From the NCBI GenBank assembly GCA_028355015.1, contig JAOMRN010000003.1:151740-215739 (forward strand): a stretch of DNA of 64,000 nt. The letters run 5' to 3'. Below the pieces are notes generated by a model. It did no database searches. It was not told where the DNA came from and was given only the letters and a program-made list of their open reading frames with translations. Shown here piece by piece: positions 9,822 to 59,752 of this stretch (position 1 is the first letter of the stretch; every line of letters begins with the position of its first letter). Source of the stretch: Methanobacteriota archaeon. GTDB taxonomy: Archaea > Thermoplasmatota > Poseidoniia > Poseidoniales > Thalassarchaeaceae. The translations under genes and the position numbers were made by a program.

Positions 9822-9899
9822 TTATCGTTTCTATTTTTCAGACGATGCAGGCAAAGACTTCATGACCTAGTTATGTTTCAAACGATATGAGTTGAAACA

Positions 9900-39025: not shown

Positions 39026-39654
39026 ATAAATTCTCCAATATTCCAATCCAAAGGGTCTTTAGGAGTTCTTTTCAAGATTAATTCAATATTAGATAATATT
39101 GTTTCTTCTATTAGTTCTCTTGTAATTTCATCTCCATTTTGATTCATTCTGTAACCTAATTTATCTAAAGATGTAGTTACTCCTAAATCCATGCCACAAC
39201 AAGCCAGATTCTCTATTCGTTGCCCTGGAGTTGCGTAATTCAGAGCTAATCCATGCCTACTTACCCAATGAAGAAATGCCAAACCTATTGAACAAACTTT
39301 TTTTTCATCTACCCAAACTCCCATCATTGCTGGGTCTCTATATCCCTTAATTCCTAAATCCTCAAGAGTTTTGATTACTAGATTTTCCATCTTATTAATT
39401 ATTCCTCTGACACTTTGTTCTTCAGAATTCCATTTAATGATTGGATACAATACAAGTTGTCCTGGGCCATGCCAAGTGATTCCCCCTCCCCTATCTACAA
39501 TTGATTGAGAGTATTCTCCAGAAATCACCTCTCCATCTCTTACTGCTTTAGGCCCAACTGTCACTATTTCTGGATGTTCTACTAGAATTATGGTGTCTAT
39601 GATTTCATCATTAATACGTTTTTTTTGTAAAACTCGCATAGCATCTGAAACCAA
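39022..39654 (-). CDS. lipB: octanoyltransferase (lipoyl(octanoyl) transferase)
   Basis: LVEHPEIVTVG and RGGGITWHGPGQLVLYPI. Confidence 0.85.
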   Translation of the reverse strand: MVSDAMRVLQKKRINDEIIDTIILVEHPEIVTVGPKAVRDGEVISGEYSQSIVDRGGGITWHGPGQLVLYPIIKWNSEEQSVRGIINKMENLVIKTLEDLGIKGYRDPAMMGVWVDEKKVCSIGLAFLHWVSRHGLALNYATPGQRIENLACCGMDLGVTTSLDKLGYRMNQNGDEITRELIEETILSNIELILKRTPKDPLDWNIGEFI

Positions 39655-39708
39655 ACTATGATCTGCAATACCAGCCTTTAGGACTTGTACCTCTCTCAGA
39701 AAATCACC

Positions 39709-42449: not shown

Positions 42450-43456
42450 TCCTCCTGAGTTTTGCGTATCGCTTCAGATATTCTTGACGGACTTGGCATA
42501 TAATCCCACTCAGTTGTATGAGGGAATGGTGTATCCCAGCCCGTGACTCTTTCAATACGACTTTCTAGATGGTAGAAACAGCGTTCTTGAATTGAGGCAA
42601 CCATCTCTGCACCAAATCCGCTAGTTTTAGGGGCCTCGTGAACAATGACGCATCTCCCTGTTTTTTCTATAGATTTCACAACAGCATCCTTATCCCATGG
42701 CACTAATGTTTGTAAATCAATAAGATCACAACTAATCCCTGAATTTTTAATCGCCTGTTCAGCAACATGGACCATTGTACCCCAAGCAATTACGGTACAA
42801 TCATCTCCTTCCATTGCTAATCTTGCTTCTCCTAATGGTATCTTGTAGTATGATTCAGGTACCTCTGCTTCAGGATGATCTTTCCAAGTAGGTACTTTGT
42901 GAGGGTCGCCATAAAAAGGCCCCCTATAGCATCTTTTAGGTTCAAAGAAAATAACTGGGTCATTATCTTCTATAGCACTGATTAGTAACCCCTTTGAGTT
43001 AAACGGTGTTGAACAATATACTACTTTTAGCCCTGGAGTATGCGTAAATTGCGCTTCAGGTGATTGTGAATGATGATGACCCCCTCTAATCCCTCCTCCT
43101 GCAGGGGTTCTGATAGTAACTGGGCACCAAAATTCTCCTCCTGATCGATGCCTTACTTTGGCCATTTCATTTACAATCTGATCATACGCAGGAAATATGT
43201 AGTCCGCGAATTGTATTTCTACAACTGGTCTCAATCCATTAATTCCCATTCCAAAGGCAGTTGCCGCTATACCACCTTCTGATAATGGTGAATCAAAAAC
43301 TCGATGTTTTCCAAACTTTTCTTGAAGTCCGTCACAAGTTCTAAAAACTCCTCCAAAGTATCCAATATCTTCTCCGAAGAGTATTATTTCATCGTCTTTT
43401 TGTAGCATATTATCCAGTGCACTATTCACTGATTGGACCATGTTCATATTTACCAT
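42446..43456 (-). CDS. 2-oxoacid dehydrogenase E1 beta subunit
   Basis: VVEIQFADYIFPAYDQIVN. 4-nt overlap with E2. Confidence 0.9.
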   Translation of the reverse strand: MVNMNMVQSVNSALDNMLQKDDEIILFGEDIGYFGGVFRTCDGLQEKFGKHRVFDSPLSEGGIAATAFGMGINGLRPVVEIQFADYIFPAYDQIVNEMAKVRHRSGGEFWCPVTIRTPAGGGIRGGHHHSQSPEAQFTHTPGLKVVYCSTPFNSKGLLISAIEDNDPVIFFEPKRCYRGPFYGDPHKVPTWKDHPEAEVPESYYKIPLGEARLAMEGDDCTVIAWGTMVHVAEQAIKNSGISCDLIDLQTLVPWDKDAVVKSIEKTGRCVIVHEAPKTSGFGAEMVASIQERCFYHLESRIERVTGWDTPFPHTTEWDYMPSPSRISEAIRKTQEE

Positions 43457-43457
43457 G

Positions 43458-44696
43458 TCACTCGTCCCTCCAGCGTTTCATTTCATCCCACTGCTCTAGT
43501 AAATGCCATGGGGGGGTTTCATAAACTTCTGTGAATATTGCATCCGAGGAAGGATAAGGCCCATTAGCTAAATCTCCAAATTTAACTGCCTCTTTGTAAG
43601 CATTCATAACTTCTGAATCCAGTTTATTTTCTAAATCTAGATGTTTTTCCTCAGTCCATATGCCTATTTTTATCAAGTGCATTTTCAAACGATCTATGGG
43701 GTCACCACCTGGCCAGAAATCGCCAGAATCTTTCGGCCTATATCTTGAGGGGTCATCACTACTACTGTGTGCCCCGGCTCTATATGTCAAAACCTCAATA
43801 TGAGTAGGACCTAAATTTTGAGAAGCCCGTTGTCTTGCCCATTTTGTAACTGAGTATAACGCCAAAAAATCATTTCCATCTACTCTTATACTAGGTATTC
43901 CATAAGGCAAGCCTCTTGTAGCGAAATTTTGTATTCCACTGGCGAAATTAGAATGTGTAGAGATAGCCCATTGATTGTTAACTACATTAAGAATTACTGG
44001 GGCCTTGAAGATACTTGCAAAATTAAGGGCATAATGGTAGTCGCCCTCTGCACTTGCTCCGTCTCCGATCCAAGTAATTGTAACCTCATCTAATTGCTTA
44101 TATTTTGATGCTAGAGCGACTCCTATTGCTTGACTAAATTGTGTTCCAACAGGGCTCGAAACTGAGATGTACCTCCCCTCGCGATATGTGTAGTGTACTG
44201 GCATTTGTCTGCCTTTGACATTGTCCTCTTCATTGCCAATGCAGTGACAAATCATACTGACCATGTCTCTCCCTCTAACAAACTGTGCACCTGGTTGCCT
44301 GTAGGTAGGGAACAACCAATCTTGATTTTCCAATGCCATAGTTTGTGCGATAGCAATTGCTTCTTCACCATAAGATCTCATGTAGAACGATAACTTACCA
44401 GTACGTTGCATTTTCATCATCCTTTCATCAAAAATTCTCAATCTAAGCATATGTTCTAATCCGATTATTAATTCCTCTGGTTTGAGATTAGGATTCCACT
44501 GGCCCGAAGCCTCATGTTCATCATTAAGAACTCTAACTAATCCAGATGCATGTTCTCTAGTATCATCTGCTGAACAGCCAATTTCCAATATATCTAGGTC
44601 TTCAGGGGTCCATGACCATTTTTCAAAGTCAGGTCTATCTCCTGGTCTTTGAGGTGCTTCAGGGATGTGGAGTGTCTTCGTCTTCTTCTTCACCAT
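43458..44696 (-). CDS. 2-oxoacid dehydrogenase E1 alpha subunit (branched-chain type)
   Basis: TPP motif GDGASAEGDYHYALNFA and YRAGAHSSSDDPSRYR. Confidence 0.9.
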   Translation of the reverse strand: MVKKKTKTLHIPEAPQRPGDRPDFEKWSWTPEDLDILEIGCSADDTREHASGLVRVLNDEHEASGQWNPNLKPEELIIGLEHMLRLRIFDERMMKMQRTGKLSFYMRSYGEEAIAIAQTMALENQDWLFPTYRQPGAQFVRGRDMVSMICHCIGNEEDNVKGRQMPVHYTYREGRYISVSSPVGTQFSQAIGVALASKYKQLDEVTITWIGDGASAEGDYHYALNFASIFKAPVILNVVNNQWAISTHSNFASGIQNFATRGLPYGIPSIRVDGNDFLALYSVTKWARQRASQNLGPTHIEVLTYRAGAHSSSDDPSRYRPKDSGDFWPGGDPIDRLKMHLIKIGIWTEEKHLDLENKLDSEVMNAYKEAVKFGDLANGPYPSSDAIFTEVYETPPWHLLEQWDEMKRWRDE

Positions 44697-44741
44697 GTAC
44701 TCAACACCTACTCCTCACTCATATTTGTTGGCTTTCTCAAA

Positions 44742-45785
44742 TCACAATTTTCCCATTAAATTCAGATGACTGACTGCTGAACCTGTAGATTCTCTTGTCA
44801 CTACTGGTTCCGCTCCTTCAGCCTCTTCGTAAAGTAATCCAGCTCGATAAGACGAGCGGACAAGAGGGCCACTCGCCACTGCTTTAAATCCAATCTCTCT
44901 AGCCTGTTTGTCCCAGTCGGCGAACTGTTTGGGTTCAGGGAATCTATCGATAGGTAGGTGCTTATCGCTTGGTTGAAGATATTGCCCTAGAGTGATCATA
45001 TCAACACCTACTTCTCTGAGTATTTTCATCGCTTCAACTACTTCTTCGTCAGTCTCACCCAACCCTACCATTATACTGGTCTTGATTCTAATATCTGGTC
45101 TCATTTTTTTCGCTTCTTTGAGGATAGTTAATGATTGTTCAAAGGAAGCCCTAGGGTCTCTAACAACACCATCTAGCCGAGGGACACATTCTACATTGTG
45201 TGCAAATACTCTAATCGGCAGGTTTTCTAATAGTTCTGCTAATGCAACAACATTGCCTTCTAAATCGGAACATAATAGTTCTAGACCTACTTTTGGAGTT
45301 CTCTCATTTACTGCCAATAAACAATTTCTATAATGATTCGCACCACCATCTGGTAAATCGTCTCTATTTACTACTGTAATTACAGCATGTGATATCCCCA
45401 TATTTTCGATAGCATCCGCTAATTCCGTAGGCTCATTAGGGTCTAGCATTGGAGGTGTTTTAATCGTACCAACTGCACAAAATCTGCAACCTCTTGTGCA
45501 AACTTCTCCTGCAATCATAAATGTCGCTGTTCCTCGTGCCCAACAATCATGTACATTTGGGCACCTTGCTTCTTCGCAAACTGTATGTAATCCATGTTCA
45601 TGGACATTTGTTCTTGTTTTGTTGAAATTGCTCTGCGCGACACCTGTTGGCAAACTCGTCTTAAACCACTCTGGAAGTCGTTTTCGTTGGGCTTTCCTTC
45701 TCTCTAAGGCACTTTCTCCTCTTTTCTCTCTTCCTTCATTAATTGACAATATGCCGCTATCAATTGTGGGGAGGCGAGTCGTCAT
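44742..45785 (-). CDS. lipA: lipoyl synthase
   Basis: Auxiliary-cluster motif CEEARCPNVHDCW and radical-SAM motif CTRGCRFCAV. Start taken at MTTRLPT (45785) rather than the track start 45824. Confidence 0.9.
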   Translation of the reverse strand: MTTRLPTIDSGILSINEGREKRGESALERRKAQRKRLPEWFKTSLPTGVAQSNFNKTRTNVHEHGLHTVCEEARCPNVHDCWARGTATFMIAGEVCTRGCRFCAVGTIKTPPMLDPNEPTELADAIENMGISHAVITVVNRDDLPDGGANHYRNCLLAVNERTPKVGLELLCSDLEGNVVALAELLENLPIRVFAHNVECVPRLDGVVRDPRASFEQSLTILKEAKKMRPDIRIKTSIMVGLGETDEEVVEAMKILREVGVDMITLGQYLQPSDKHLPIDRFPEPKQFADWDKQAREIGFKAVASGPLVRSSYRAGLLYEEAEGAEPVVTRESTGSAVSHLNLMGKL

Positions 45786-45863
45786 TGTTACTTCGAGAAG
45801 GGTAAAGACGAAAACTATTCTCATTCGTTATGTTTGACTTGGGCTTATACAAGAAGTCATATC

Positions 45864-47049: not shown

Positions 47050-47070
47050 TTAACGCAGATTTTATTCAAA

Positions 47071-47155
47071 TGGTGCAGGGGGTGGGATTCGAACCCACGA
47101 AGGTCTTACCACCGGAGCTTAAGTCCGGCCCCTTTGACCACTCGGGTACCCCTGC
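47071..47155 (-). tRNA. tRNA-Leu (anticodon UAA), long variable arm, 3' CCA encoded
   Basis: The reverse complement folds as a cloverleaf. Acceptor GCAGGGG/CCCCTGC, anticodon stem CCGGA/TCCGG with loop CTTAAGC, T-arm GTGGG-TTCGAAT-CCCAC, discriminator A then CCA. 85 nt. Confidence 0.9.
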
Positions 47156-47273
47156 GGCCCTCGGGCGTAGGAACTTAGTCTTGAATCGCGCGGCTCTAAA
47201 ATGTCCCGAAAATAGATGCTTGGCCGGAACTTATGATGAGAACTCTTTAACACCCTGTGAACAGCCGAGAACC

Positions 47274-50237
47274 GTGCAAGAGTCAAGGAATGTTCAACGG
47301 CGCGTCAAAACCGCGCAAATTGCTCTATTCTTAGCGTTATTAATGATGGCGCCTATTTATTCGGGTCAAACTTACGGTTCGGAGCTCGAAGAAACATATT
47401 CTGAACGCAATAATGTCGATGCGCCTATTGAACTTTACACACTATATTTAGCATCAGCCGACTCCACTACTGACGGCGACGGTTTGATTACAACAAAGAT
47501 TCCTGATTCAGGAGGCCAAGAAACATCGAGCGCTCTGGATGAAACAATAGAATTTATCAGTCAAGAGTTGTTATCTTCGATTGAAATATTTGGTAGACCC
47601 AATCAAGGTTCTAGTTCAGGTAGTTATTACTTGCCTTTAGATCTATTTTTGAAAGCAGTAGGGCCAAGTGGTTCATCAGTTGAGTGGACGATTAATATTA
47701 GAGCCGGTGGTTCATCAATAGGGCAGGCGGAATGGAGTACTGATGCCTGCAATACTGGAATTGGAAATAGTTGTAACTTTGATCATGAGGAGTTTGAAAT
47801 TGATATCGGTTCTAGTAGCTCATTTATGGTGCTTGAAGATGAGACTATTGAAGTAACAATTTCTGCAGAGATGTCCGGTTGTGACAGCAGTGGTAGCCCG
47901 TTCGGTAGTACATGTACGGCTGAAGTTGCTTGGAACGAGATAGATGGCGAGGCGACTCGCCATTCAGAAATAGAAGTTGAGACCAATGCCATTTCGAATA
48001 GCATAGTGGTATTACAGAGAGATGGGGACGAGATTTCAGAAGGTCCTGAGTTAGAATGGTACCCTAATGATATAATCGATCAAAGATCAATGCAGTTTAC
48101 ATTTGACGTCAAAAGTGCATTTGGAAGATATGACATTGATAGTGTGAGGTTATTACTCCGTGATTCCCAAGGCATCTATCGGATAGATAGAGAAATAAGT
48201 AATGATGACCCTGATATCGATGATACAAATGAAGGTATATTCGGGCATTATTCATGGACTTATCCAGGAGGAGTGCCGTCTGGCGAATATTCAGTTGAGT
48301 TAGAAGTTACTGACATTCAGGGTAATTTAGTATTAATTGATCATGAACCTGTTGAAATGCGTCAATTTGGAGTTTCCATTAATCACGGTCTAGATAGACA
48401 AACTGAATATATAGCACCTGGTGAAATCACTCCTATCCCTTTGCAATTAGTTCATAGGGGTGATTCAACTAAGTCTATGTTAGTCGAACTCGAAGTAATG
48501 ACTAATTTGGGTAGTTCTTGGTTGGTAGAGTTTGATTCAGACTCTAGTCTATATTCATTAGATGCCGGAGGGGATATACTAAATCCAATCTTAACCTTAC
48601 AAGCTCCTGATGATCTGACTGGTACCCCAAGTAGTATTGACATTAGAGCAGTCGCAGAGGCCGAGGTAGAAGGTGTCCAAACAGTAGTTCACCAAGAAAC
48701 TTTTAACATTATTTTAGAAAAAATAGGTGTTTTCCAACCCCCTGCTGTCTCTGTTTGGGATGAAGAACATGGTCTTCCAATTGCCAACTCTACTAGGCCA
48801 GATAGTGTTGACTACACAATACCAAGGTATGTAGAGTATGGGGAATTTACGCCCTTTTTACTTGAAATTTTTAATACTGGTTTTGATGCCGATGAATTCC
48901 GAATAGATGTTCTAAAACGTTCTAAATCAATCATTCAAGTCTATGATAACAATACAGGAGAAAGAATTCTCGAAGACGTAGGTGATGGTACATTCCATTC
49001 TTCTTATTTGGAACGTCATGATACGCAAGTATTGTTACTTAATATCAAGCCATCTAATGATCGTGCTGATGATGATTTAGGATTAATTGAAATTGAAGTA
49101 ACTAGTTCCGGAAATTCATCTCTAAGGAGTACTGTATTGTTCACTATACAGAGAACCTTTGGAATAAGGGCTGAAGTTACTTATGATTGCGACGGTTCTC
49201 CTCTTGGGCAGATAGAAGTATCTCAATGCTCCCCTGGTGACGATAATGCAGTTGTTGATTTACGTGCTAGAATAATTAGTAGTGCTAATTCGGGTGATAC
49301 GGCGCTTTGGTGGCGAATTCAAAACCCTGCTACTTTAGAAGAAAATCTCGATATTGATTCTAGATATGGGCAGTGGCAGTTTAGAATCGAAGATGGTAAT
49401 CAAGAAGCTGTCCCTCGTGTTTCATTAAGTCCTGGGGGATTCGTTGAAGTCGACGTAACTGTGACACTGACAACTCAGGTCGTGCAAGGTAATCATACTA
49501 TTTACCTTAGGATAATAGAGGATACAGAGGATTCCGAACCACGATATTTTGATTTACCTATGACATTTGAAATTGGTCCTGATTCCCCTAATTTAGAGAT
49601 TGTTCAGGTTACTGCAGATAGAAAACTACTCCCTGGCGAGGATTATTCTATCCAAATGAAAGTACAAAACGATGGGAATACTGAAATGACAATTCTTCTT
49701 GATGCTGAAGTTGATGAACCCGGTTGGGAAGTTTCTATTGAGGGCCCTTCAGGCTCAACTTTCATTCAATTAGCCGCATTTGAAGAAGTGAGTTTCAATC
49801 TGAAAGTAACAGTCCCTTCTGATGCGAATAATGGTGATAAAGTTCCTGTTTTAGTTACTGCAATGCCTCTTGCTTATGTTATCGACGGAACTTTAGATAC
49901 AAGCCAGAGTTGGGGTGATGAATATACTGCTAAGCAGACAGTCCAAATGACAGTAGATTTAGGTAATGTGGTAGACATAATTGTCAATGAACTGAGTCAT
50001 CCAAGGCCGCTAACTTTGATCATGCTACTCGTGGGCGTTTTGTTGATCATTGCTGGAATTCAGAGCAACATGAATCGCCGTAGATGGGCGAGTCACATGG
50101 CATTAATTGATTCTATGAATAAGGATGAATCTGATGACGAAGATGACGACATGGGGTCAATTTCTGAACCTGTAGAGGCGGTTGAAGAGTCCTATGATTC
50201 TGATCGTTATGATGACGACGATATCGAACTAGTCTGA
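47274..50237 (+). CDS. large secreted, membrane-anchored surface protein (COG1470/NEW3/CARDB-like beta-sandwich repeats)
   Basis: The track ORF starts at 47070 inside the antisense tRNA. The first plausible start is GTG 47274, ahead of the signal peptide RRVKTAQIALFLALLMMAPIYSG. C-terminal TM at about 50010-50070, then an acidic tail. Confidence 0.75.
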   Translation: MQESRNVQRRVKTAQIALFLALLMMAPIYSGQTYGSELEETYSERNNVDAPIELYTLYLASADSTTDGDGLITTKIPDSGGQETSSALDETIEFISQELLSSIEIFGRPNQGSSSGSYYLPLDLFLKAVGPSGSSVEWTINIRAGGSSIGQAEWSTDACNTGIGNSCNFDHEEFEIDIGSSSSFMVLEDETIEVTISAEMSGCDSSGSPFGSTCTAEVAWNEIDGEATRHSEIEVETNAISNSIVVLQRDGDEISEGPELEWYPNDIIDQRSMQFTFDVKSAFGRYDIDSVRLLLRDSQGIYRIDREISNDDPDIDDTNEGIFGHYSWTYPGGVPSGEYSVELEVTDIQGNLVLIDHEPVEMRQFGVSINHGLDRQTEYIAPGEITPIPLQLVHRGDSTKSMLVELEVMTNLGSSWLVEFDSDSSLYSLDAGGDILNPILTLQAPDDLTGTPSSIDIRAVAEAEVEGVQTVVHQETFNIILEKIGVFQPPAVSVWDEEHGLPIANSTRPDSVDYTIPRYVEYGEFTPFLLEIFNTGFDADEFRIDVLKRSKSIIQVYDNNTGERILEDVGDGTFHSSYLERHDTQVLLLNIKPSNDRADDDLGLIEIEVTSSGNSSLRSTVLFTIQRTFGIRAEVTYDCDGSPLGQIEVSQCSPGDDNAVVDLRARIISSANSGDTALWWRIQNPATLEENLDIDSRYGQWQFRIEDGNQEAVPRVSLSPGGFVEVDVTVTLTTQVVQGNHTIYLRIIEDTEDSEPRYFDLPMTFEIGPDSPNLEIVQVTADRKLLPGEDYSIQMKVQNDGNTEMTILLDAEVDEPGWEVSIEGPSGSTFIQLAAFEEVSFNLKVTVPSDANNGDKVPVLVTAMPLAYVIDGTLDTSQSWGDEYTAKQTVQMTVDLGNVVDIIVNELSHPRPLTLIMLLVGVLLIIAGIQSNMNRRRWASHMALIDSMNKDESDDEDDDMGSISEPVEAVEESYDSDRYDDDDIELV

Positions 50238-50238
50238 A

Positions 50239-50249
50239 TTTTCTTTTTT
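50239..50249 (+). terminator. oligo-T tract ttttctttttt just after the stop of the 987-aa protein gene
   Basis: Read directly from the sequence. Lies between the two giant genes. Confidence 0.4.
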
Positions 50250-50304
50250 AGTCGTCCGAACTACGCTCCATTCTTCTTAAGACCCCCATTAAACGCCACA
50301 GGTA

Positions 50305-53300
50305 TTGGAGAGGAGTAGTTTGCGGGTTGTATCTGTTAATTTTACTGATAGAATATTACTCCGCAAACGTCGCTCAGCGATTTTATTCACTTCAATTATG
50401 CTACTGGCTTCTTATTCTGCTATTGAGTTTGGGAGCTGGGAAGCCCTTGCTACTAGTGATGACGATGGAGACGGATTGACATACGGTCTAGAATTCATAA
50501 TCAATACACAACCACAGGATTGGGATAGTGACAACGACGGCCTCCCTGATGGGTGGGAATGGCAATATGGATTAGATCCGTTATCTCCTTCTGGAATTAA
50601 TGGATCAGTAGGTGACCCTGATTCTGATGCTTATACTAATCTAAATGAGTACTTGTATGGTATGCCAACAGGTTGGGATGATTTATCCACTGCAAATGTT
50701 TTGGATAATGGTGTTTGGTGGAATGGCACTGTGCCTGTTAGGAATTGGGATGAAGAAAGCGCTATGCAATTTTCACAGGGCACAGGTTCAGATGGTGCTG
50801 ATGAAGATCCAGTAGGAAATATTTGTTTCAATACTTTCGACGATGATAAAGATGGCTTAGTGGATAACTTCGACCCCGATGGTGATGGAGATGCAGACTG
50901 TTCAAGTGATGATGATGACGGTGATGGCCAAATAGACGAAGATCCAGATGGTTGGGATACAGATGGTGACGGTATGCCTGATGGTTGGGAAGTCGCAAAT
51001 GGTTTAGATCCAACTTCTGCTTCAAATTTAGATGGAACTTATGGTGACCCAGATGGAGATGGATTAATCAATTTATATGAATATGTTAATCCTACTTGGG
51101 GTACAAGAAATGGTTCGACAACTCCTCCGACTCAATATTTCCGCCCTGGTCCAGAAAACATGACTGCTACAGAATCTCCCTGTAATCCCGTTCTAGGGTT
51201 GGGTCCTGGAGGTTGTGCGATATTCACCGCCGAAGTCGACTCAATAACCCAAACGGATCCTCAGAATAACGATACTGATGGCGATGGGCTGAATGACTCT
51301 TACGAAGCATTAATTTTGCTAACGGATCCAACTGCTATCGATACAGATGGAGATGGCGTTAATGATGGTGTTGAAGTAAATGGGGCATATGGTGATCCTG
51401 CACAGGCTTCTGATCCAAGGAATAACAATACTGATGGCGATCAGTTTGATGATGGTGAAGAGGATATTAATGGCAATGGCATTGTTGATGCTAACGAAAC
51501 AGATCCAACCCGTGTTGAAGATCAAGGTGACTTTGATGGCGATGGTATTGATAATTGGGAAGAAAATTTGACTTGTACCAAATGGGATGTTGCTGATACT
51601 GACGGAGGTGGAGTTAATGATGGCGATGAATCTGCTATAGGTCATCAAACAGACCCATGCGTCAGTGAAATAATCATAGTTAAATCAGTAGTTAATTGGA
51701 ACCCTGCTTCATCAACCATTCAATTAAATTCTTCATTGGATCTTGATTTATCTCCCTCGGATTGGAGAGAAGAATTATCTCCAAATGCTGGACTTAAGCC
51801 GATGGCATACTTTGAGTTGAGTAATGGAAGCACAGTAGGTTTCCGTTACTCATCAGTAAATCTCGATACCTTAACTGACGTAGATGTGCCAATGCCTGCA
51901 ACAACCGTTGCAATTTTATTTTCAAATAACTCCTGGTGCTGGGACACCTCCGTACCTCTCAGCGAACCACACTGTGATGATGATTTCCTTGATTCAGATG
52001 GTGATGGCTTGGCTGACTGGGAAGAAATTCTAGCTACGTGGGGTTATGCTACTGATCCTAGCCTGTTTGATACTGATGGCGATGGAGTAGATGATCTAAC
52101 AGAAATATTCAATGAGACCGACCCTACTAATCCTTGCAGCAATCTCCTAGATACCGACGAAGATGGTTTGAACAATTATTTCGAGAATTCTACTGGTTGT
52201 GATTTAATCTTTGGTTTTGGAGGAAATGGGACTACTGATACTTACTTCACTCTATGGGATGATGCAGATACCGATGATGGTGGTGTAACTGATGGTCAAG
52301 AGTATCTCGATGGAACAAACCCTCAGAATAATTCTGCGGATGATCTTAATCCAATGGACTCTGATGGTGATGGTATACCAGACACGATTGAGCAAGCAAT
52401 TGGACTTGATTGGTTAAATCCAGATACTGATGGAGGGGGAGTTCCAGACGGTCAGGAATGCGGTCCTGATTTCTGGATTCTAAATTGTGTAGGGTCCGAT
52501 AGTGACCCTTTTGATCCTGCGGATGATATCGATGCGAATATGTTGATGTTCACTGCTACTAATAGTACTAGCGTAGACCTAGGGTTGCTTAGATACTGGA
52601 GATGGCACACATACGACACATATACTGGTATTTCTTTCGGTGTAAATACAAGTCTTGTAGGATATAGACCAGTGGGGGATAGCAATGAAAATGGATTTAC
52701 CCAAGGCGTTTCCCATATTTCTTTTTGGAATGACTCTGAACTTGATGACTGGGTCATAGAATATATGGATAGTGGAATACAGCCAGGTGATGAATTAATT
52801 GTACCCTACAATACAGTCAATTGGACTTCTTGGAGTGACTTCAGTGCTGGATTAAATTTTTCCAATTATACTAGAGATGTATTAGTTGATCAAGCAACAG
52901 TAGATTCTGTATTCATTAGTTCTCCAGATATCTTTTTCGGCCCCGAAATTCGCGAAAATACTACAATATTCTTTGGTAGTGATTATGCCAAGGATCTACC
53001 ACAGTCTTACATTGACAGACATAGTTCAGTCCCTAATTCTATTACACAAGCAGTACTGAGTGACTCTGGCGCATTTTCTGCATGGGAAAAAGTCGAAGCC
53101 ATACAAGATTTCTTGATTAATGGTAATAATACTACTACTTTTTTGCGAAATAATGACCCTGCAATTCTTGATGGTTTTGAATCAGAATCAGATGGTGATA
53201 TTACTTATGTCATCTTGAACAATACTAATGAAGGTAGTTGTGATCAATTCGCAACAGTTTTTGCAGTTATGCTTCGGCATGCTGGTTTCGCATCTAGAAA

Positions 53301-56300
53301 AGTCACTGGATTCTCAGGTGGCGAATGGAATGGTAAATCATACGAGGTTTACGGAAGTGATTTTACTACTTGGGTAGAAGTACAAATGCAAACCAATCAG
53401 AATCAGGGTAATGTTACGTTAGGATGGGTTCCATTTGAAGCGTGCCCACCACAAGCACTTGTTGAAGTAACTGATGAACAATGGGGCCCTTCAACATTTG
53501 ATAGAGATTTAACAAGCGGTGATATCTGGCTCAATGGTACATTACAATTCGTAGATAATGCTACTTTGGCAGAAAACGTTAGTATAACTCTATACCTTGT
53601 CCCTGGAAATGATACTAATTTAGTCCCTGGTTCTGCTGCCAAACCGATGCATCTAGTTGCAAATGGTTCAACAGATGCAAATGGCAGTTTTTCATTATTA
53701 GGTAAACCTTTTGATGCAATTAATCCCGGATATGGCGCTTTAGTATTACAAATTTTCGAGAAAGCTTATGTTGGTTCACAAGGAATTTCTTTTGATTGGA
53801 GATTAAACATTACTGATGATGCGAATACCTCATTCAGCTCCCCACCCCCAATAGAGCAACCGATGTTAGGAGTTGGTGTTAATTCGAGTGTTTCAGGTTA
53901 TTTAAATCTAGAAAATTCTCCTTATCCGGATGTTTCTCAAATTGATAGTCTCCAAGTAGTTTTGAACTACACTACAGTATCTGATGGGCCAGTAAGTATG
54001 ATCTCGAATATTGGTACAGGTGGATATTATGATTTCAATATACCTATTTCTGATACAGAGCCTTTAGGTTTGATTAATGCTTCAATTTCATTCCTTGGAT
54101 GGCATGAAGACGATCTAAATAATGCAACTAATCCTAGTTATCACATCAGGCCATATTCTGATAGTTTTATGTTCAATATTACTCCTGCTCCTAATCTTAC
54201 CTTGACTTTGGAGGGTATTGATGCTAACAACACATTTTTGGACATAGATTCACCCATATTCATCAATGGGACTGCTTTGAGTATTGGAAATACTCCTGAA
54301 GAATTAAATGGAACTCTTTTCCTTCAGATTAGAAGAAGTTCAACTAATGGTCCATATCAGACAATAAAGTCATGGTATCTTAACGATTCTAATTGGACAA
54401 CCTCTCCTGGTCAGTTCAACATAAGTTGGATATTTTCAGCGAGTGATGTCCCTATACCTGCTGGTCCTGTAGAAGTAAAGTTCCAGTTTGATGCAGAGGG
54501 TCTTTTCGCTAATGATCAAGTGAGTTACTTGACAGAATATGGGATAAGGAGTAATATCAGTGTATCTTATGATTTAGTCCCTCAATCTAGAGGTAATCAA
54601 GCATCAGTAGAAATTACCCTTACAGATCACACAAATACTTCTCTAGGGAATTTTATTGGCAGCTATGTCCTAGACTTTAATGGTACTTCAGTTTGGAATA
54701 TTACTGACCCAGATATACCTAAGATAACTCCTGTTTGGGTTCCTGAAGCAACCGCTCCTGCTGGAGATTACTCTTGGGTGTTGAACTTTTCAGGCAGTAC
54801 TTGGCTGAATCCATTTACTATTGTTGATGTAGTTAGGATTCAAGGGCAATCAGGTTCTACTGTGAATATAGGCAGTGAATGGACACCTAGAGGTACTTCT
54901 AACTGGGTCACAGGTTTCGCACAAGATAGAAACCTCCAAACTCCTGTAATAGGTAACAATTCATCGGTGTCAGTTCAAATTTTAGTTCCTTCAGATTTGC
55001 CTCCACTACCTGATGGTAGTCCACCTCCTGATGTATCGATTAGACTTGGTGGCGGCTTTATTGATACTTTAACAGGGGAATACAATATCTCGTTTTTCAT
55101 GCCAGAATACGTTTCTTCGGGTGTTTATGAGTTACGTGTATTCCTTGATTATGCAGTCAATGCTCCTGTTGGTGGAGAATATTACAAAGTTTCTGATGCA
55201 GATAGTATTTCTGTAGGTATCCAAACAGAAATGATTGTTGAAAACTCTCCATCTTCCTTAATCGTAGTAGCCGGTCAAAGTTTGATACTTAATGCTACAA
55301 TCACAGACATTGCGGATGGGTCTCCCATTCCAGATATTTCTGCAGATTTGATCTTTGATTCAGGCGGTCCATTAGAGCAAACTCTTGAGACTAACATAAC
55401 TTTCACGGATGGGATAGTCCGTTACAACCCTATAATTCCTGCAAATACTCCACCTGGTTATTACAATCTTTTAGTTTCAGCTCCTGATGATATATCTGAT
55501 AACTTAACTGCAGATAATGCTGGCCGCTGGCTTGGGAATGAAAGTTTATCTAATTTAACAGTCCAAGTATCTAGCCTGATTGATTTAAATCCATTATCTA
55601 CTGAGGTAGCAGCAGGCTCAGTATTTACTGTTTCAGGACAGGTACTGGATGCCGTAGACTCGAATCGAACAGTCGATGGGCCAATGGCTGTAGAGGTATT
55701 TTTCTTGAATGACCCTAGTGAAACTCTTATCACAAATTTTGTTACTACAATTAATGGTAGTTTCAATATAACAGTTCCAACAGATCCTTTGGGGGATGGT
55801 GTCAGTAGTGGGATAAAGACAGTCGTAGTCAGTGTAATAGAAGATAGTAGCCCATTCTATCTTACAGGAACCGGGAATGATACTATCTTAGTCAGAGGGA
55901 TTACAACATTCAGAGACAAGACTCCTTTACTCAACGTGGTAGTCGATAGAGGTACTAATGTGACATTGGGTGCGAGATTAGTAGAATCGAGTAATGACGA
56001 TTTAGCGTTAGAAGGATTAGATGTTTCTGCAGAATTCCATGATACATGGCTGAACGAAGTGACTTCTAATTCTCAAGGGCTAGTAAATTTCACATTCTTT
56101 ATCCCTAATGACCACCCATTAGGGCAAATAGATGTATTAATGTACTTTAATGGTTCAAGTACTTTGTACAATACTTTGACTCTAATATCTACAATTACTG
56201 TACGTTCTCCAACATTTATTACAGTTGATAATATCACAGATAATCCAGCCGCAGGAGAATCATTTAATGTCACCGGGACTTTAACTTCAAATAATGGGAG

Positions 56301-59271
56301 TTCCATAATTGATCGTCAAGGAAATACATTAGCACCCAGCTTAATTTTCAAAATCGACGGACTTGACGACACATTTACAGTAATTAGTAGTTCGGTTGAA
56401 ATCGATGGTTCTTGGTCTGCGAATATCAGATTAGACTTGACATTCCCTCGAGGTTCTCATAACATTACTGCTACCTTCACTCCTAATGTCAATTATTATG
56501 AATCTAGTTCTGGAGATGGTTTCTTTGATAGTCGAGGCTATTCACTACTGACAATCCTCAGTCCTCTAGATTTAGACCCTGATAGTCGAGTAGTTCGTGG
56601 TCAAGAAATTAATATTTCATTATCTCTTATTGATAATTCGGCATTACCAGTCAGTTTAGTAGATTTAGATGTTATAGTAGATGGCTTAGTAGTGTCTAGT
56701 CTCATTACAGATTCCTTGGGATTGGCAAATACTTCTTTGATAGTTGATTCCACAAGAATAGCAGGTCCCATGGAAATCAGAGTAGTATTCTCAGGTATTG
56801 AAGGAAGTACTGGTCTTGTAGGTGATGAATCAATTACGAGAGTCATAGTTCTTGCACCAACGGTTATTGAAATAACAGGAGTTACAGGTTCTGCTATAGC
56901 GGGTGAAACAGTAACTTTCCATGGTACTTTACTCGACGAACATGGACAATCATTACTTGATCAGGGAATTGAAACTGGTGGTATAATTCATTTGACTATT
57001 GATGGAATTGATGTAGGTGCAATGTACTCTACTCAAAGTAATTATTCAACTGGAGAATGGTCGATAACTTATGATCTTCCTTTAGATACTGATTATGGTG
57101 CACATTCAATTCAAGCGGATTTCTTTGGTGGGTTTACTTGGGTTGATCCGATGGGACAAGGGGATTCGTTGAATCCCGAATACTATCTTCCTTCCATGTC
57201 TAATTCGATTTTTAATGTCACACAAACATCGCAAGTAGTTCTTACAACTCCTCCTGGTGAGATAGATCGAAACCAGTTGTTAACGATAGAAGGTATGCTA
57301 ACTGATGGTGCTGGAAGGACACTTCCAGGTAGAGCGCTTTCAGTCTACATGAATGACCAACTATTAACCGGACTTAATGTTGATGAAAATGGTAACTTCA
57401 GTCTATTTATTCCAGTTCCTTCAGATATGCCCCTTGGTCCAAGAATTGTAAAAATTATTTTTGAAGGAGAAGAATTTATTCTTTCTTCTAATTCTTCATC
57501 GGTGTTTATTGTATTTGCACCTACTGAGGTTTCAATATCTCCTCCCAATGCTGCTGCGGTAGGTGATAATTTAATTCTAAGAGGTACAGTAACTGACAAC
57601 TTACCGAATGGAGTACTAGCTAATCATTCACTTGAAATTTTTATTGATGGGGTATTGATAGGAATTACTACAAGTGATGAAAATGGTGATTGGAACCTTA
57701 ATTGGATGGTTTCTGAATTCTTAGATGTTGGTACTCACTTAGTGACAGTGAAGGCGCCTCAACAAGGATATTACCGTGAAGGAACTTCAGAAGTAAATTT
57801 GACAATAGCCTATCATTCTGGGATTTCACTTCAAGTAGATTCCAGTATTGTAACAAGGGGCGGTCAGTGGAACTTTACTGGTCGACTTTATGATGCGGAT
57901 TCTGATGGTTTACCTGGCCTAGATAATCGTGAGGTAATTATTTATCTTGACGGCCAAGAAATTGGACGGACAATAACTCTGGAAAATGGTTTCTATTCAT
58001 TCAATCATGAATTAGGTTACTCAATTGATAGAGGGGAACATGAGATATTAGTTGAATTCATAGGGGAAACATATTACCTTCCGATAGAATATAACATGAG
58101 TGTTTACGCTAGATCCGACATTAATCTTGAGATTCTCTGGATTTCAGAAACAATAATTCGAAGTGATGTTGAACACCCGATTAAGATTGAAGGAAGAATT
58201 TTAGAAATAGGCGGGGGAGGAAGCGTATTACAAGATATGGTTCTGACTTTGCATTGGCTTTCTAACGGTCCTGAAAATGCGAATCTAGAATGGGATGAAG
58301 CTACAGGGCATTTCAGAATACAATCTAATGCTCATTACCCTATGCCTCCTGGCCCTATTGATTTAGAAATAAGAGTTGAATCTGATTCTTCCAGATATCT
58401 AAATGGTGGTTCAGAAGACTTATCGGTTTCTATAATGGTCCCAGTTAATTTCAAATTCACTCCTGATAAGATTAAATTGGGTAAAGATGATCGAATAATC
58501 AGAGGCACTGTAAACGTCACTTCTACTGATTCATTTGAACCCGTTTCTAATATTTCCATGACTGCTTCTCTGATTAATGCATCATCTGGTCAAACTCACT
58601 TCAGAGTTACAGAAATGACTGACCAAGATGGCCTGTTTACTTATGAGTTCAAATCCATAGAAGGTCTGCCTACATTATGGAATCAAGACTTTTGGGGCGA
58701 ATTAAGTATTACTTTTAGCACCGATTCTTTGTTCATAGATCCGTCCAATAGAACTTGGTTAACAACTCAGCATGGAGGCATAGATATTGAATACGAACAA
58801 ACAGCAGAATCCTCGATATTCCAATCTTTATTCGTTGTAATATTATTTGTAATTGTAATTGTAGGTCTAGCAGGCAGTGCGTTATATTATCAACGCCGTA
58901 GAAGTGCTGCAATAGATGAATTAGCAGGGATATTTAGTTACACTGCTGAGCTTCTTGCTGCAGGAGACGAATTTAGGGAGGCAATATACAACTGCTATGA
59001 GAGTCTTTGTCAAATTTTAATGCGTAGAGGATTTTTACGTCGAGACTTTGAAACTGTCAGAGAATTCGAAATAGCTATTCGTTCTGCATTGCCAATTAGT
59101 GAACAATCATTAATTGCTTTAGATAGAATATTCGAAGAGGCTCGTTATTCTAGTCATGTATTAGGCGAGGGACATCGTCAAAACGCACAAATAGCTCTAA
59201 ATGCCGTATTACAAGAGATAGATCAATTACAAGAAATCCCTGTTAGAGATGATTATATTGCTTCAGAATAA
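50305..59271 (+). CDS. giant (2988 aa) surface protein: TSP3-like Ca-binding repeats, transglutaminase-like core, tandem beta-sandwich modules, TM helix and DUF4129-like tail
   Basis: Uninterrupted 8.97-kb ORF. Start is TTG 50305 or TTG 50320, the latter preceded by GGAGAGGAG. N-terminal anchor RKRRSAILFTSIMLLASYSAIEF. See sub-features and findings. Confidence 0.9.
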   Translation: MERSSLRVVSVNFTDRILLRKRRSAILFTSIMLLASYSAIEFGSWEALATSDDDGDGLTYGLEFIINTQPQDWDSDNDGLPDGWEWQYGLDPLSPSGINGSVGDPDSDAYTNLNEYLYGMPTGWDDLSTANVLDNGVWWNGTVPVRNWDEESAMQFSQGTGSDGADEDPVGNICFNTFDDDKDGLVDNFDPDGDGDADCSSDDDDGDGQIDEDPDGWDTDGDGMPDGWEVANGLDPTSASNLDGTYGDPDGDGLINLYEYVNPTWGTRNGSTTPPTQYFRPGPENMTATESPCNPVLGLGPGGCAIFTAEVDSITQTDPQNNDTDGDGLNDSYEALILLTDPTAIDTDGDGVNDGVEVNGAYGDPAQASDPRNNNTDGDQFDDGEEDINGNGIVDANETDPTRVEDQGDFDGDGIDNWEENLTCTKWDVADTDGGGVNDGDESAIGHQTDPCVSEIIIVKSVVNWNPASSTIQLNSSLDLDLSPSDWREELSPNAGLKPMAYFELSNGSTVGFRYSSVNLDTLTDVDVPMPATTVAILFSNNSWCWDTSVPLSEPHCDDDFLDSDGDGLADWEEILATWGYATDPSLFDTDGDGVDDLTEIFNETDPTNPCSNLLDTDEDGLNNYFENSTGCDLIFGFGGNGTTDTYFTLWDDADTDDGGVTDGQEYLDGTNPQNNSADDLNPMDSDGDGIPDTIEQAIGLDWLNPDTDGGGVPDGQECGPDFWILNCVGSDSDPFDPADDIDANMLMFTATNSTSVDLGLLRYWRWHTYDTYTGISFGVNTSLVGYRPVGDSNENGFTQGVSHISFWNDSELDDWVIEYMDSGIQPGDELIVPYNTVNWTSWSDFSAGLNFSNYTRDVLVDQATVDSVFISSPDIFFGPEIRENTTIFFGSDYAKDLPQSYIDRHSSVPNSITQAVLSDSGAFSAWEKVEAIQDFLINGNNTTTFLRNNDPAILDGFESESDGDITYVILNNTNEGSCDQFATVFAVMLRHAGFASRKVTGFSGGEWNGKSYEVYGSDFTTWVEVQMQTNQNQGNVTLGWVPFEACPPQALVEVTDEQWGPSTFDRDLTSGDIWLNGTLQFVDNATLAENVSITLYLVPGNDTNLVPGSAAKPMHLVANGSTDANGSFSLLGKPFDAINPGYGALVLQIFEKAYVGSQGISFDWRLNITDDANTSFSSPPPIEQPMLGVGVNSSVSGYLNLENSPYPDVSQIDSLQVVLNYTTVSDGPVSMISNIGTGGYYDFNIPISDTEPLGLINASISFLGWHEDDLNNATNPSYHIRPYSDSFMFNITPAPNLTLTLEGIDANNTFLDIDSPIFINGTALSIGNTPEELNGTLFLQIRRSSTNGPYQTIKSWYLNDSNWTTSPGQFNISWIFSASDVPIPAGPVEVKFQFDAEGLFANDQVSYLTEYGIRSNISVSYDLVPQSRGNQASVEITLTDHTNTSLGNFIGSYVLDFNGTSVWNITDPDIPKITPVWVPEATAPAGDYSWVLNFSGSTWLNPFTIVDVVRIQGQSGSTVNIGSEWTPRGTSNWVTGFAQDRNLQTPVIGNNSSVSVQILVPSDLPPLPDGSPPPDVSIRLGGGFIDTLTGEYNISFFMPEYVSSGVYELRVFLDYAVNAPVGGEYYKVSDADSISVGIQTEMIVENSPSSLIVVAGQSLILNATITDIADGSPIPDISADLIFDSGGPLEQTLETNITFTDGIVRYNPIIPANTPPGYYNLLVSAPDDISDNLTADNAGRWLGNESLSNLTVQVSSLIDLNPLSTEVAAGSVFTVSGQVLDAVDSNRTVDGPMAVEVFFLNDPSETLITNFVTTINGSFNITVPTDPLGDGVSSGIKTVVVSVIEDSSPFYLTGTGNDTILVRGITTFRDKTPLLNVVVDRGTNVTLGARLVESSNDDLALEGLDVSAEFHDTWLNEVTSNSQGLVNFTFFIPNDHPLGQIDVLMYFNGSSTLYNTLTLISTITVRSPTFITVDNITDNPAAGESFNVTGTLTSNNGSSIIDRQGNTLAPSLIFKIDGLDDTFTVISSSVEIDGSWSANIRLDLTFPRGSHNITATFTPNVNYYESSSGDGFFDSRGYSLLTILSPLDLDPDSRVVRGQEINISLSLIDNSALPVSLVDLDVIVDGLVVSSLITDSLGLANTSLIVDSTRIAGPMEIRVVFSGIEGSTGLVGDESITRVIVLAPTVIEITGVTGSAIAGETVTFHGTLLDEHGQSLLDQGIETGGIIHLTIDGIDVGAMYSTQSNYSTGEWSITYDLPLDTDYGAHSIQADFFGGFTWVDPMGQGDSLNPEYYLPSMSNSIFNVTQTSQVVLTTPPGEIDRNQLLTIEGMLTDGAGRTLPGRALSVYMNDQLLTGLNVDENGNFSLFIPVPSDMPLGPRIVKIIFEGEEFILSSNSSSVFIVFAPTEVSISPPNAAAVGDNLILRGTVTDNLPNGVLANHSLEIFIDGVLIGITTSDENGDWNLNWMVSEFLDVGTHLVTVKAPQQGYYREGTSEVNLTIAYHSGISLQVDSSIVTRGGQWNFTGRLYDADSDGLPGLDNREVIIYLDGQEIGRTITLENGFYSFNHELGYSIDRGEHEILVEFIGETYYLPIEYNMSVYARSDINLEILWISETIIRSDVEHPIKIEGRILEIGGGGSVLQDMVLTLHWLSNGPENANLEWDEATGHFRIQSNAHYPMPPGPIDLEIRVESDSSRYLNGGSEDLSVSIMVPVNFKFTPDKIKLGKDDRIIRGTVNVTSTDSFEPVSNISMTASLINASSGQTHFRVTEMTDQDGLFTYEFKSIEGLPTLWNQDFWGELSITFSTDSLFIDPSNRTWLTTQHGGIDIEYEQTAESSIFQSLFVVILFVIVIVGLAGSALYYQRRRSAAIDELAGIFSYTAELLAAGDEFREAIYNCYESLCQILMRRGFLRRDFETVREFEIAIRSALPISEQSLIALDRIFEEARYSSHVLGEGHRQNAQIALNAVLQEIDQLQEIPVRDDYIASE
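50458..52458 (+). repeat. about 20 thrombospondin-type-3-like acidic Ca-binding repeats (DxDxDGxxDxxE), in two blocks
   Basis: Examples are DSDNDGLPDGWE, DTDGDGMPDGWE, DTDGDGVNDGVE, DSDGDGLADWEE and DTDGGGVPDGQE. The blocks are 50458-51660 and 51985-52458. Confidence 0.8.
53080..53470 (+). other. transglutaminase-like core region within the giant protein
   Basis: EGSCDQFATVFAVMLRHAGFASRKVTGF...SDFTTWVEV...GWVPFEACP matches the G-C-x-x-F-A...R-x-x-G-I-P-A-R...H-x-W-x-E...D pattern, except at the His and Asp positions. Confidence 0.6.
53540..58790 (+). repeat. about 15 tandem divergent ~100-aa beta-sandwich modules (carboxypeptidase-regulatory/Cna-B/Ig-like)
   Basis: Recurring pattern of strand-G-x-x-hydrophobic-x-hydrophobic-x-G-x-hydrophobic-x-D...G-x-P-L/I...D-G...T-D-x-N-G-x-F/W...G-x-H/Y-x-hydrophobic. 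Examples are TDENGDWNLNW, VDENGNFSLFIPVP and TDANGSFSLLG. Confidence 0.6.
58815..59271 (+). other. TM helix plus DUF4129-like cytoplasmic tail of the giant protein
   Basis: TM helix is LFVVILFVIVIVGLAGSALYY, followed by QRRR. Downstream, ETVREFEIAIRSALP...LDRIFEEARYSSHVL resembles the DUF4129 signature. Confidence 0.55.
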
Positions 59272-59275
59272 TTAA

Positions 59276-59752
59276 TCACATGAATGATAGTTCTATTATA
59301 CCATTATTCCAAGTTATTTTTTCTATCTCTTTGTTAGGTGGTAGCCTAAAAGTTCTAAGAAGGCCACCAAAAATTTCTGAAGAAATTATTTGTACGATTT
59401 GTGTATCTTCCTCGTATCTAGTTTGAAGGATTAAGTCACTCGGAGTCTCAGAGGGGAATGGTAAATTTATACCCAAATCAGTTTTTAATCCTCCAAATTC
59501 TGTCAAAATTTCATCAATAGTATCTAGGTCTCTTATTTTCATTTTTGTTTCTTCTAAATCTGTAGTCATACTTGAAACAATTTTTTCATGCTTTTTCTGC
59601 ACTTCTGCTAGGTGGTTTAGGTTTAGTAAAAAATTTCTATGCATATCTTGTGCATTAGAATTAAGACTATTTTCTGACGAATCTAAGGATATCCCTAGTA
59701 TTTTTTTATTTTCCGAGAGTTGTATCTCATGACGTCGCCACACATGGTCCAT
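59276..59752 (-). CDS. hypothetical protein with a weak Hsp20/alpha-crystallin-like C-terminus
   Basis: C-terminal FGGLLRTFRLPPNKEIEKITWNNGIIELSF resembles the ACD end pattern G-x-F-x-R-x-F-x-L-P...nGvL. The N-terminal half looks like coiled coil. Confidence 0.3.
   Translation of the reverse strand: MDHVWRRHEIQLSENKKILGISLDSSENSLNSNAQDMHRNFLLNLNHLAEVQKKHEKIVSSMTTDLEETKMKIRDLDTIDEILTEFGGLKTDLGINLPFPSETPSDLILQTRYEEDTQIVQIISSEIFGGLLRTFRLPPNKEIEKITWNNGIIELSFM

Follow-up and report, generated by a model that had tools for sequence, protein, structure and literature searches.

The window analysed here, a 64-kb stretch of DNA (contig JAOMRN010000003.1) from a member of the archaeal order Poseidoniales (Marine Group II, MGII), family Thalassarchaeaceae, contains two very long co-directional open reading frames (ORFs), one at 47070–50237 (1055 aa as delimited mechanically) and one at 50305–59271 (2988 aa). 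A first-pass annotation had described them as two giant membrane-anchored surface proteins placed beside the only tRNA gene of the window, at what it took for the boundary of a variable island. The ORF list and ARAGORN, which found a single tRNA gene in the window, confirmed this arrangement. The locus raises the question of what the two genes, called A and B below, encode, and whether the tRNA marks a variable island or the pair belongs to the constant part of the genome. On balance, the comparisons reported here favour the view that A and B make up a core, vertically inherited cell-envelope module of the Poseidoniales, which would provide the main surface scaffold as an S-layer-like canopy or a glycocalyx.

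Conservation of the A/B Locus

The elements of the locus are the following:

47071..47155, minus strand: tRNA-Leu(UAA), conserved neighbour of A (ARAGORN)
47274..50237, plus strand: gene A, 987 aa, type I membrane protein, GTG start (translation)
50239..50249, plus strand: T-rich tract TTTTCTTTTTT, 2 nt past the stop of A (sequence)
50305..59271, plus strand: gene B, 2988 aa (2983 aa from TTG 50320), giant type I membrane protein

The B frame cannot be attributed to chance, since about 6.5% of codons are expected to be stops at approximately 39% GC and an open frame of 2988 codons would then arise with a probability of about e^-200. Homologues of the two genes belonged to the Poseidoniales, the nearest to the Thalassarchaeaceae and others to the second family, the Poseidoniaceae. 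A scan with one genome per GTDB species returned relatives of A in 374 species genomes, one stretch in each; the best 80 were examined and all were Poseidoniales contigs, one of them labelled Chloroflexota. For B, more than 2400 homologues were recovered, the best 120 of which were full-length (nearly all 2935–3017 aa), extended down to 40% identity and included Poseidoniaceae sequences. The A orthologues of the Poseidoniaceae could be aligned over their full length at 31% identity.

Gene order was compared in 83 related loci (about 80 species genomes), and judged only where the flank was long enough. The order LipA(-)–SDR–FolB–tRNA-Leu(UAA)–A–B–small ORF(-)–XPD(-) was identical in every locus with enough flank, in both families, and tRNA-Leu lay directly upstream of A in nearly all of the 83 loci. 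The segment A–B–small ORF–XPD was kept even in the most distant lineage found, in which the transglutaminase region of B showed 29% identity. The size of B was similarly constant: among 65 complete loci the stop-to-stop frame had a median length of 2990 aa, with 59 of them between 2969 and 3016 aa, and an alignment of 47 B sequences was almost gap-free. A search for tandem or near-identical repeats in the DNA of B found only 15 degenerate copies of a 36-nt motif, described below; because near-identical repeats are absent, the domain array of B is old and stable. Selection was evaluated against the closest genome, the single-cell assembly AG-313-L18 (synonymous divergence, dS, about 0.5). The ratio of nonsynonymous to synonymous substitution rates (dN/dS) was 0.053 for A and 0.046 for B, compared with 0.054 for LipA, 0.064 for FolB and 0.092 for SDR. 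Purifying selection on A and B is as strong as on their housekeeping neighbours.

These results bear directly on the hypothesis that a genomic island, hypervariable or gained by horizontal transfer, has integrated beside tRNA-Leu. Such an origin is suggested by the contact with the sole tRNA of the window and by one Poseidoniaceae genome in which an additional gene is present between the tRNA and A (see below), but it would have to accommodate an identical gene order in about 80 species genomes and a dN/dS of about 0.05. The GC content of the locus (0.36–0.43) was the same as that of the remaining window, no integrase was present among the neighbours of A and B, and a second copy of the tRNA-Leu 3' end, which could have formed an att-like repeat, was sought in the window and not found. 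In addition, A and B are located on the 5' side of the tRNA, whereas integrating elements normally insert at the 3' side. An island is therefore highly improbable, and this part of the first-pass annotation was abandoned on the grounds of synteny, selection, composition, the absent repeat and the geometry of the tRNA. The same annotation had held that an invariant locus devoid of signs of surface exposure would speak against its proposal; the locus did turn out not to vary, but there is strong evidence that the proteins are exposed at the surface, as described in the next section.

A few loci showed local differences. In a Poseidoniaceae metagenome-assembled genome (MAG; locus L001, 4709–6928), an extra gene for a 739-aa PKD/He_PIG/YHYH-domain protein was present between tRNA-Leu and A, and FolB was absent; this was the only difference in gene content observed right beside the tRNA. 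In one Thalassarchaeaceae MAG (L003, 6772–6859), tRNA-Leu(UAA) occupied the same site on the opposite strand relative to A and B, which suggests that the tRNA gene was inverted locally. The B frame was split in L084 (5237–14152) into 2701 aa and a separate 249-aa ORF with DUF4129, and broken in L064 and L067 (1997 and 2550 aa, respectively), probably as a result of frameshifts or assembly errors. In L011, L023 and L049 it was about 105 aa longer (3096–3105 aa), approximately the size of one immunoglobulin-like (Ig-like) domain. The contig labelled Chloroflexota (L020, PBAZ01000027.1, "Chloroflexota bacterium isolate SP4360") carried the complete LipA–SDR–FolB–tRNA–A–B–small ORF–XPD block with 56–74% protein identity, and is almost certainly a mis-binned archaeal contig.

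Domain Organization of Protein B

Domains were assigned with Pfam, using the family cut-offs, and from AlphaFold2 (AF2) models searched with Foldseek. From the N-terminus to the C-terminus, the following parts were distinguished in B, all on the plus strand:

50305..50451: predicted signal peptide, aa 1–49, with an n-region of basic residues (RKRR), an h-region of 16 aa and a c-region that ends in A47-x-A49
50452..52494: thrombospondin type-3 (TSP3)-like region, aa 50–730 (Pfam TSP3_bac)
52495..53499: TgpA-like module, aa ~731–1065, in which a beta-sandwich and a helical part accompany a transglutaminase/papain-like core
53518..58794: stalk, aa 1072 to about 2830, in which diverged Ig-like domains (Big_3_5 / CarboxypepD_reg-like) recur every ~110 aa
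58816..58884: transmembrane helix, aa 2838–2860 (hydropathy maximum 3.02), followed on the cytoplasmic side by YYQRRR
58885..59271: cytoplasmic domain, aa 2861–2988 (128 aa), containing DUF4129 at aa 2897–2962

The residues A47 and A49 were each kept in 45 of the 47 aligned homologues, and the sequence that follows, [ST][ST]DxDGDG, would form the mature end, the signal peptide being probably cleaved after the conserved AxA. The translation start itself may be the TTG at 50320 rather than the TTG at 50305, since a Shine-Dalgarno-like sequence, GGAGAGGAG, precedes the former at 50306–50314.

The TSP3-like region (TSP3_bac, PF18884, 28.9 bits for a cut-off of 25) contained about 15 DxDxDGxxDxxE motifs, 14 of which were captured by a regular expression and which correspond to the 15 degenerate 36-nt copies seen at the DNA level. 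These motifs presumably bind Ca2+. Apart from a less conserved insert at aa ~455–560, this was the most conserved part of the ectodomain, with a column identity of 0.73–0.87 and a dN/dS of 0.029; a PDB sequence search with the region gave nothing useful. The ectodomain possessed 14 cysteines, all at least 90% conserved and distributed as seven consecutive pairs (174/199, 293/304, 424/452, 545/557, 611/632, 719/728 and 979/1047). Six of the pairs fell inside the TSP3-like region, the repeats of which they would staple by disulfides. Beyond the last pair, no cysteine was present between aa 1048 and 2896, leaving the stalk cysteine-free. An iterative hidden Markov model (HMM) search delineated 15 Ig-like domains between aa 1072 and 2690, so that the protein has at least 15, and the Pfam match to Big_3_5 reached 49.8 bits.

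The stalk was also dense in sequons (N-X-S/T). In the whole of B, 86 sequons were counted (2.88 per 100 aa) where shuffled sequences predicted 33.8 (z = 11), and the other proteins of the window averaged 0.43 per 100 aa. An excess was observed in all 46 homologues compared (70–101 sequons, z of 6–17). More than half of the positions in B (50 of 86) were conserved in at least half of the homologues, and not a single sequon was present in the cytoplasmic tail. B is probably N-glycosylated at many of these sites. Being anchored by one C-terminal transmembrane helix, B would expose about 2790 aa outside the cell, and the evidence for such an exposure, drawn from its sequence, is strong. The topology advanced in the first-pass annotation for both proteins, with a signal, an ectodomain, a transmembrane helix and a tail, was supported by translations, hydropathy and models, with one correction: what it had called a short cytoplasmic tail in B is a conserved domain of 128 aa. 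The DUF4129 match in this domain (PF13559, cut-off 24.8) scored 25.3 bits when the whole protein was searched and 32.3 bits when the tail was searched by itself. It was the most strongly constrained part of B (dN/dS of 0.007–0.019, column identity of 0.82), and no solved homologue of the tail was found by PDB sequence search.

A Degenerate Transglutaminase Module

The Transglut_core domain (PF01841) was recognized at aa 959–1046 (53179–53442) with 41.1 bits for a cut-off of 23. The AF2 model of the module was of good quality (pLDDT 85, pTM 0.83) and its top Foldseek match was 6g49, the periplasmic domain of TgpA (E-value of 7.6e-11, probability 1.0, TMt 0.60, 16% identity), with factor XIII and a cysteine protease of Cytophaga ranking next. 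TgpA was also the only PDB sequence-search match to the transglutaminase region of B, HMMER aligning the TgpA segment DAHAWVE with DFTTWVE of B. In the model, a helix had Cys979 at its N-terminus, Thr1021 opened the strand that follows and Glu1045 closed the one after it; the three residues occupied the canonical positions of the catalytic triad. Thus, the transglutaminase core fold is present in B, but the Cys-His-Asp triad is not.

The residues occupying the three positions behaved very differently in the 47-sequence alignment. Cys979 was invariant (47/47), and so were R991, R998, W1023 and E1025, which also belong to the core. At aa 1021, the place of the catalytic His, B had Thr and the family T, S, A, D, N, Q or G, never His, and no His was present among the residues of aa 721–1200 conserved at 90% or more. 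At the Asp position, aa 1045, Glu was found in B and a mixture in the family (E in 23 sequences, D in 17, Q in 4, N in 2 and K in 1). A further cysteine, Cys1047, was invariant. All relatives outside the family kept the His (aH-xWxE), usually together with DPTP; among them were TgpA-like proteins of ~700–750 aa and other giant proteins with several transglutaminase domains. The gain of Cys1047 and the loss of the His were therefore seen in the whole B family and in no outside relative, indicating an early loss of the catalytic His in the family and the acquisition of a Cys two residues past the acid position. The consecutive pairing of the other cysteines, taken together with this exchange, suggests that Cys979 and Cys1047 probably form a disulfide. 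The module is most likely a non-catalytic pseudo-enzyme, given that the catalytic His is lost in all 47 sequences and that the invariant Cys1047 was acquired.

In an exhaustive HMMER search with aa 721–1200 of B, approximately seven full-length clusters at 50% identity were obtained, all of 2700–2982 aa, below which scores fell sharply to matches with the transglutaminase core only. From this drop, the architecture of B appears to be confined to this lineage. The first-pass annotation had noted the lack of an adjacent partner enzyme; no glycosyltransferase, ATPase or secretion gene was indeed found nearby, but B itself carries a protease/transglutaminase-fold domain.

Protein A

The mechanical start of ORF A overlaps tRNA-Leu, which is on the opposite strand. 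Starting from the GTG at 47274, A has 987 aa, in agreement with the 981–987-aa versions deposited by NCBI, JGI and Tara. Many public gene calls begin instead at an ATG overlapping the tRNA (region 47070–47273) and give proteins of 1049–1057 aa. The start site of A is thus mis-annotated systematically across metagenome catalogues, and the GTG at 47274 is the sensible start.

The protein begins with a signal or anchor helix (aa 10–29), continues with about eight or nine tandem beta-sandwich domains (aa ~50–895) and a transmembrane helix (aa 912–930), and ends, after RRR, with a 57-aa acidic disordered cytoplasmic tail. The AF2 model (pLDDT 78) was correspondingly all-beta, with a helix at the N-terminus, another at 912–934 and a disordered tail. 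NEW3/NPCBM_assoc, at aa 787–856, was the only Pfam family passing its cut-off (28.8 bits for 24.4). Foldseek searches with the model retrieved generic multi-Ig chains only (TM-score below 0.2), and a PDB sequence search gave nothing useful. The tail (50064–50234) contained a conserved [DE]IPxPV motif, loosely similar to DIPxFL, the peptide that ends bacterial FtsZ, and a terminal DDD(I/L)EL(V/L) or DDLELLxELxDL, in which E985 and L986 were invariant across both families. Sequons were not enriched in A (median of 5, z of -0.7 in 39 orthologues). A truncated paralogue of B was considered as the origin of A and rejected, no homology between the two being seen with BLASTP and the hhalign probability being 7.8%.

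The gene is always encoded just upstream of B, and A probably works with B. The oligo-T tract which the first-pass annotation had placed between the two genes, at 50239–50249, is present. Archaeal RNA polymerase is known to use oligo-T terminators, and TTTTCTTTTTT is for this reason a candidate archaeal terminator or attenuator between A and B.

A Model of the Poseidoniales Cell Surface

We propose the following organization of the two proteins at the cell surface. B would be exported by the Sec pathway, its signal peptide would be cut, and the protein would be held by its single C-terminal transmembrane helix. The glycosylated Ig-like stalk would sit next to the membrane with the transglutaminase-fold head beyond it, and the free N-terminal tip would be a disulfide-stapled TSP3 "wire" bearing about 15 Ca2+-binding motifs. 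In this model, the pseudo-transglutaminase head would serve as a binding or assembly module and not as a cross-linking enzyme, whereas on the inner side of the membrane the DUF4129 domain would hold a conserved cytoplasmic partner. A would be the shorter, beta-sandwich partner of B, with its own transmembrane helix and its conserved acidic C-terminal peptide. The contacts within such a coat would depend on Ca2+, and the coat may serve for attachment as well.

Other functions can be imagined for the same architecture. In one of them, A and B would be a dedicated adhesin, a stalked fibril whose Ca2+-loaded TSP3 tip and transglutaminase-fold head bind particles, other cells or the surface of phytoplankton, and attachment would come before envelope structure as its function. 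This reading, which overlaps that of an envelope module and does not exclude it, is in keeping with the classic combination of an anchor, an Ig stalk and a distal binding head, with the TSP3 repeats typical of adhesion proteins, with sub-threshold NCBIfam matches to CglD and MtsD of Myxococcus (cohesion, gliding), and with the use of "thrombospondin genes" as evidence of adhesion by Rinke et al. (PMC6461757). Adhesins, however, are usually patchy, repeat-variable and fast-evolving, whereas B is present across the whole order, has a fixed length, is devoid of near-identical repeats and is subject to a housekeeping-like purifying selection. It was present in every genome examined of both families, and Rinke et al. 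report certain genera from the free-living size fraction alone (PMC6461757). We hold a dedicated adhesin to be a serious but rather unlikely alternative; a structural coat accounts better than a facultative adhesin for a gene that is universally present, fixed in length and constrained like a housekeeping gene, and adhesion through the tip is compatible with an envelope module.

An enzymatic role deserves less credit. B might be an active surface transglutaminase, cysteine protease or deamidase, in which Cys979 would act together with a non-canonical partner. Envelope proteins would then be cross-linked or processed by B, as has been proposed for TgpA of Pseudomonas, and A, encoded next door, could be one of the substrates. 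The invariance of Cys979 and of W1023, E1025, R991 and R998 speaks in its favour, as does the fold match with TgpA, a protein that is important for viability and active as a transglutaminase in vitro (PMC3507681). The absence of the His in every member of the family, with no alternative conserved His in the module, and the variation of the Asp position (E/D/Q/N/K) make this activity improbable, and Cys979 has in Cys1047 a family-specific invariant partner, matching the six other cysteine pairs of an otherwise cysteine-free ectodomain. Finally, B could be taken for a surface-anchored protease trap of the alpha-2-macroglobulin (A2M) type, as Pfam matches to MG2, bMG3 and MG4 exist in B homologues (faint in the loci examined) and A2M and complement chains appeared in the Foldseek lists. 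TM-scores to A2M were nevertheless below 0.2, the similarity being that of generic beta-sandwich arrays, and the thioester motif CxEQ is impossible in a protein with no Cys from aa 1048 to 2896. With the thioester cysteine absent, this identity was rejected and retains practically no likelihood.

Several observations do not fit easily with a cell-envelope module formed by A and B. S-layer proteins usually diverge fast, whereas A and B are very highly conserved, and a conserved cytoplasmic domain is unusual for a purely structural coat. The invariant Cys979 could still act as a nucleophile with a non-canonical base. The single argument for the A–B partnership is conserved adjacency, and the oligo-T tract between the genes suggests that they may be transcribed separately. 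In the main text of one MAG-resolved metatranscriptome paper, A and B are not among the highly transcribed genes. The Poseidoniales are, moreover, without any culture (PMC6461757).

Comparison with Known Systems

B is a TgpA-like transglutaminase-fold/DUF4129 membrane protein, but a giant one, degenerate in its active site and conserved throughout its lineage. TgpA of Pseudomonas aeruginosa (PA2873) also possesses an extracytoplasmic beta-sandwich and transglutaminase-fold module, which was the best structural match of B. In both proteins, the module carries the nucleophile Cys and the W-x-E motif and precedes a transmembrane helix, itself followed by a cytoplasmic DUF4129 domain. TgpA differs by its N-terminal polytopic membrane domain (DUF3488; six transmembrane helices, PMC3507681), for which B showed no Pfam match, having one N-terminal hydrophobic segment. 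B, at ~3000 aa, has roughly four times the length of TgpA (688 aa), with a 680-aa TSP3 region before the module and at least 15 Ig domains after it; it has lost the catalytic His, has a variable Asp position and has an extra invariant Cys. The genomic context is also different. TgpA-like genes of bacteria sit in operons with MoxR/DUF58, whereas no MoxR/DUF58 gene was found anywhere in the 64-kb window.

The distal part of B resembles the TSP3 proteins, namely the eukaryotic thrombospondin/COMP "wire" and the bacterial CglD and MtsD, in its DxDxDGxxDxxE repeats with interspersed conserved Cys pairs and in being extracellular, acidic and presumably Ca2+-binding. However, the scores of B against the NCBIfam families were far below the cut-offs (95 against 400 for CglD, 57 against 800 for MtsD). 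B has no VWA domain, and its TSP3 repeats make up no more than the distal quarter of a far larger protein anchored in the membrane. With S-layer glycoproteins (Haloferax volcanii csg, 7ptu), B shares an acidic Ig-like chain predicted to be secreted, a C-terminal membrane anchor and many conserved N-glycosylation sequons, probably glycosylated in B. The pairing of a large protein with a smaller membrane-anchored one also recalls Sulfolobus SlaA/SlaB, a two-gene pair. No significant sequence or fold match was obtained with 7ptu (Foldseek rank 29, E-value of 2e-3, TM-score of 0.12), and B is far larger than S-layer proteins, much more conserved, and provided with a cytoplasmic domain and a transglutaminase-fold head. 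In addition, A and B each have their own transmembrane anchor.

The first-pass annotation had called the system undescribed. There is no characterized full-length homologue, in line with this claim; but the parts of B are known domains, databases already name B a "transglutaminase domain-containing protein", and Rinke et al. (PMC6461757) had noted widespread "thrombospondin genes" in the Poseidoniales as a hint of adhesion, listing flotillin and thrombospondin genes as possible cell-surface or aggregation factors. Neither thrombospondin nor transglutaminase is mentioned in the supplements of that study. In the literature searched, no paper linking MGII or Poseidoniales to a transglutaminase like B was found, and searches on the S-layer, the cell surface and thrombospondin transcripts of MGII brought up no description of the envelope or of A and B. 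To our knowledge, the cell envelope of the Poseidoniales has not been described.

The Poseidoniales, which are uncultured, dominate among the archaea of the surface ocean (PMC6461757). A and B, being order-wide and strongly constrained, with B probably heavily glycosylated, are a concrete candidate for the make-up of the MGII cell exterior, which viruses, grazers and particles would meet. One may tentatively go further and see in them the principal envelope proteins of a new kind of archaeal surface layer, associating a glycosylated pseudo-transglutaminase, a Ca2+-binding tip and a cytoplasmic partner coupled through DUF4129; this bolder proposal is possible, but we would not expect it to hold in full. 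If true, it would give a first functional context in archaea for DUF4129 and the TgpA-type architecture. B itself offers a clean natural example of a transglutaminase fold turned into a probable non-catalytic module, with the nucleophile Cys apparently recruited to a disulfide, and links this fold to the uncharacterized DUF4129 under extreme constraint. On the practical side, the conserved ectodomain could provide antibody handles, or handles independent of fluorescence in situ hybridization (FISH), for the sorting or imaging of MGII cells.

Neighbouring Genes

The remaining gene content bore out the description of an otherwise housekeeping window. It comprised ABC transporters, flotillin, thiolase, carbamoyl-phosphate synthase, Lys- and Arg-tRNA synthetases, eRF1, a 2-oxoacid dehydrogenase complex, LipA, LplA, FolB and XPD.

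The small ORF downstream of B (59276–59752, minus strand, 158 aa) is convergent to it, the two stop codons being 4 nt apart, and its position between B and XPD was kept in nearly all loci. It evolves faster, with a dN/dS of 0.15–0.39 and 22% identity to the Poseidoniaceae copy. No Pfam family was above threshold, and its C-terminus appeared faintly HSP20-like by eye. The flotillin gene (Band_7 and Flot domains) was located at 9219–11303 and was preceded by a 200-aa ORF without Pfam match. Directly upstream of the A/B locus, a lipoate-dependent 2-oxoacid dehydrogenase block (39022–45824, minus strand) was complete with E1 alpha, E1 beta, E2 and E3. It was flanked by LipA and a lipoate-protein ligase-like gene, and its synteny extended to the whole order.

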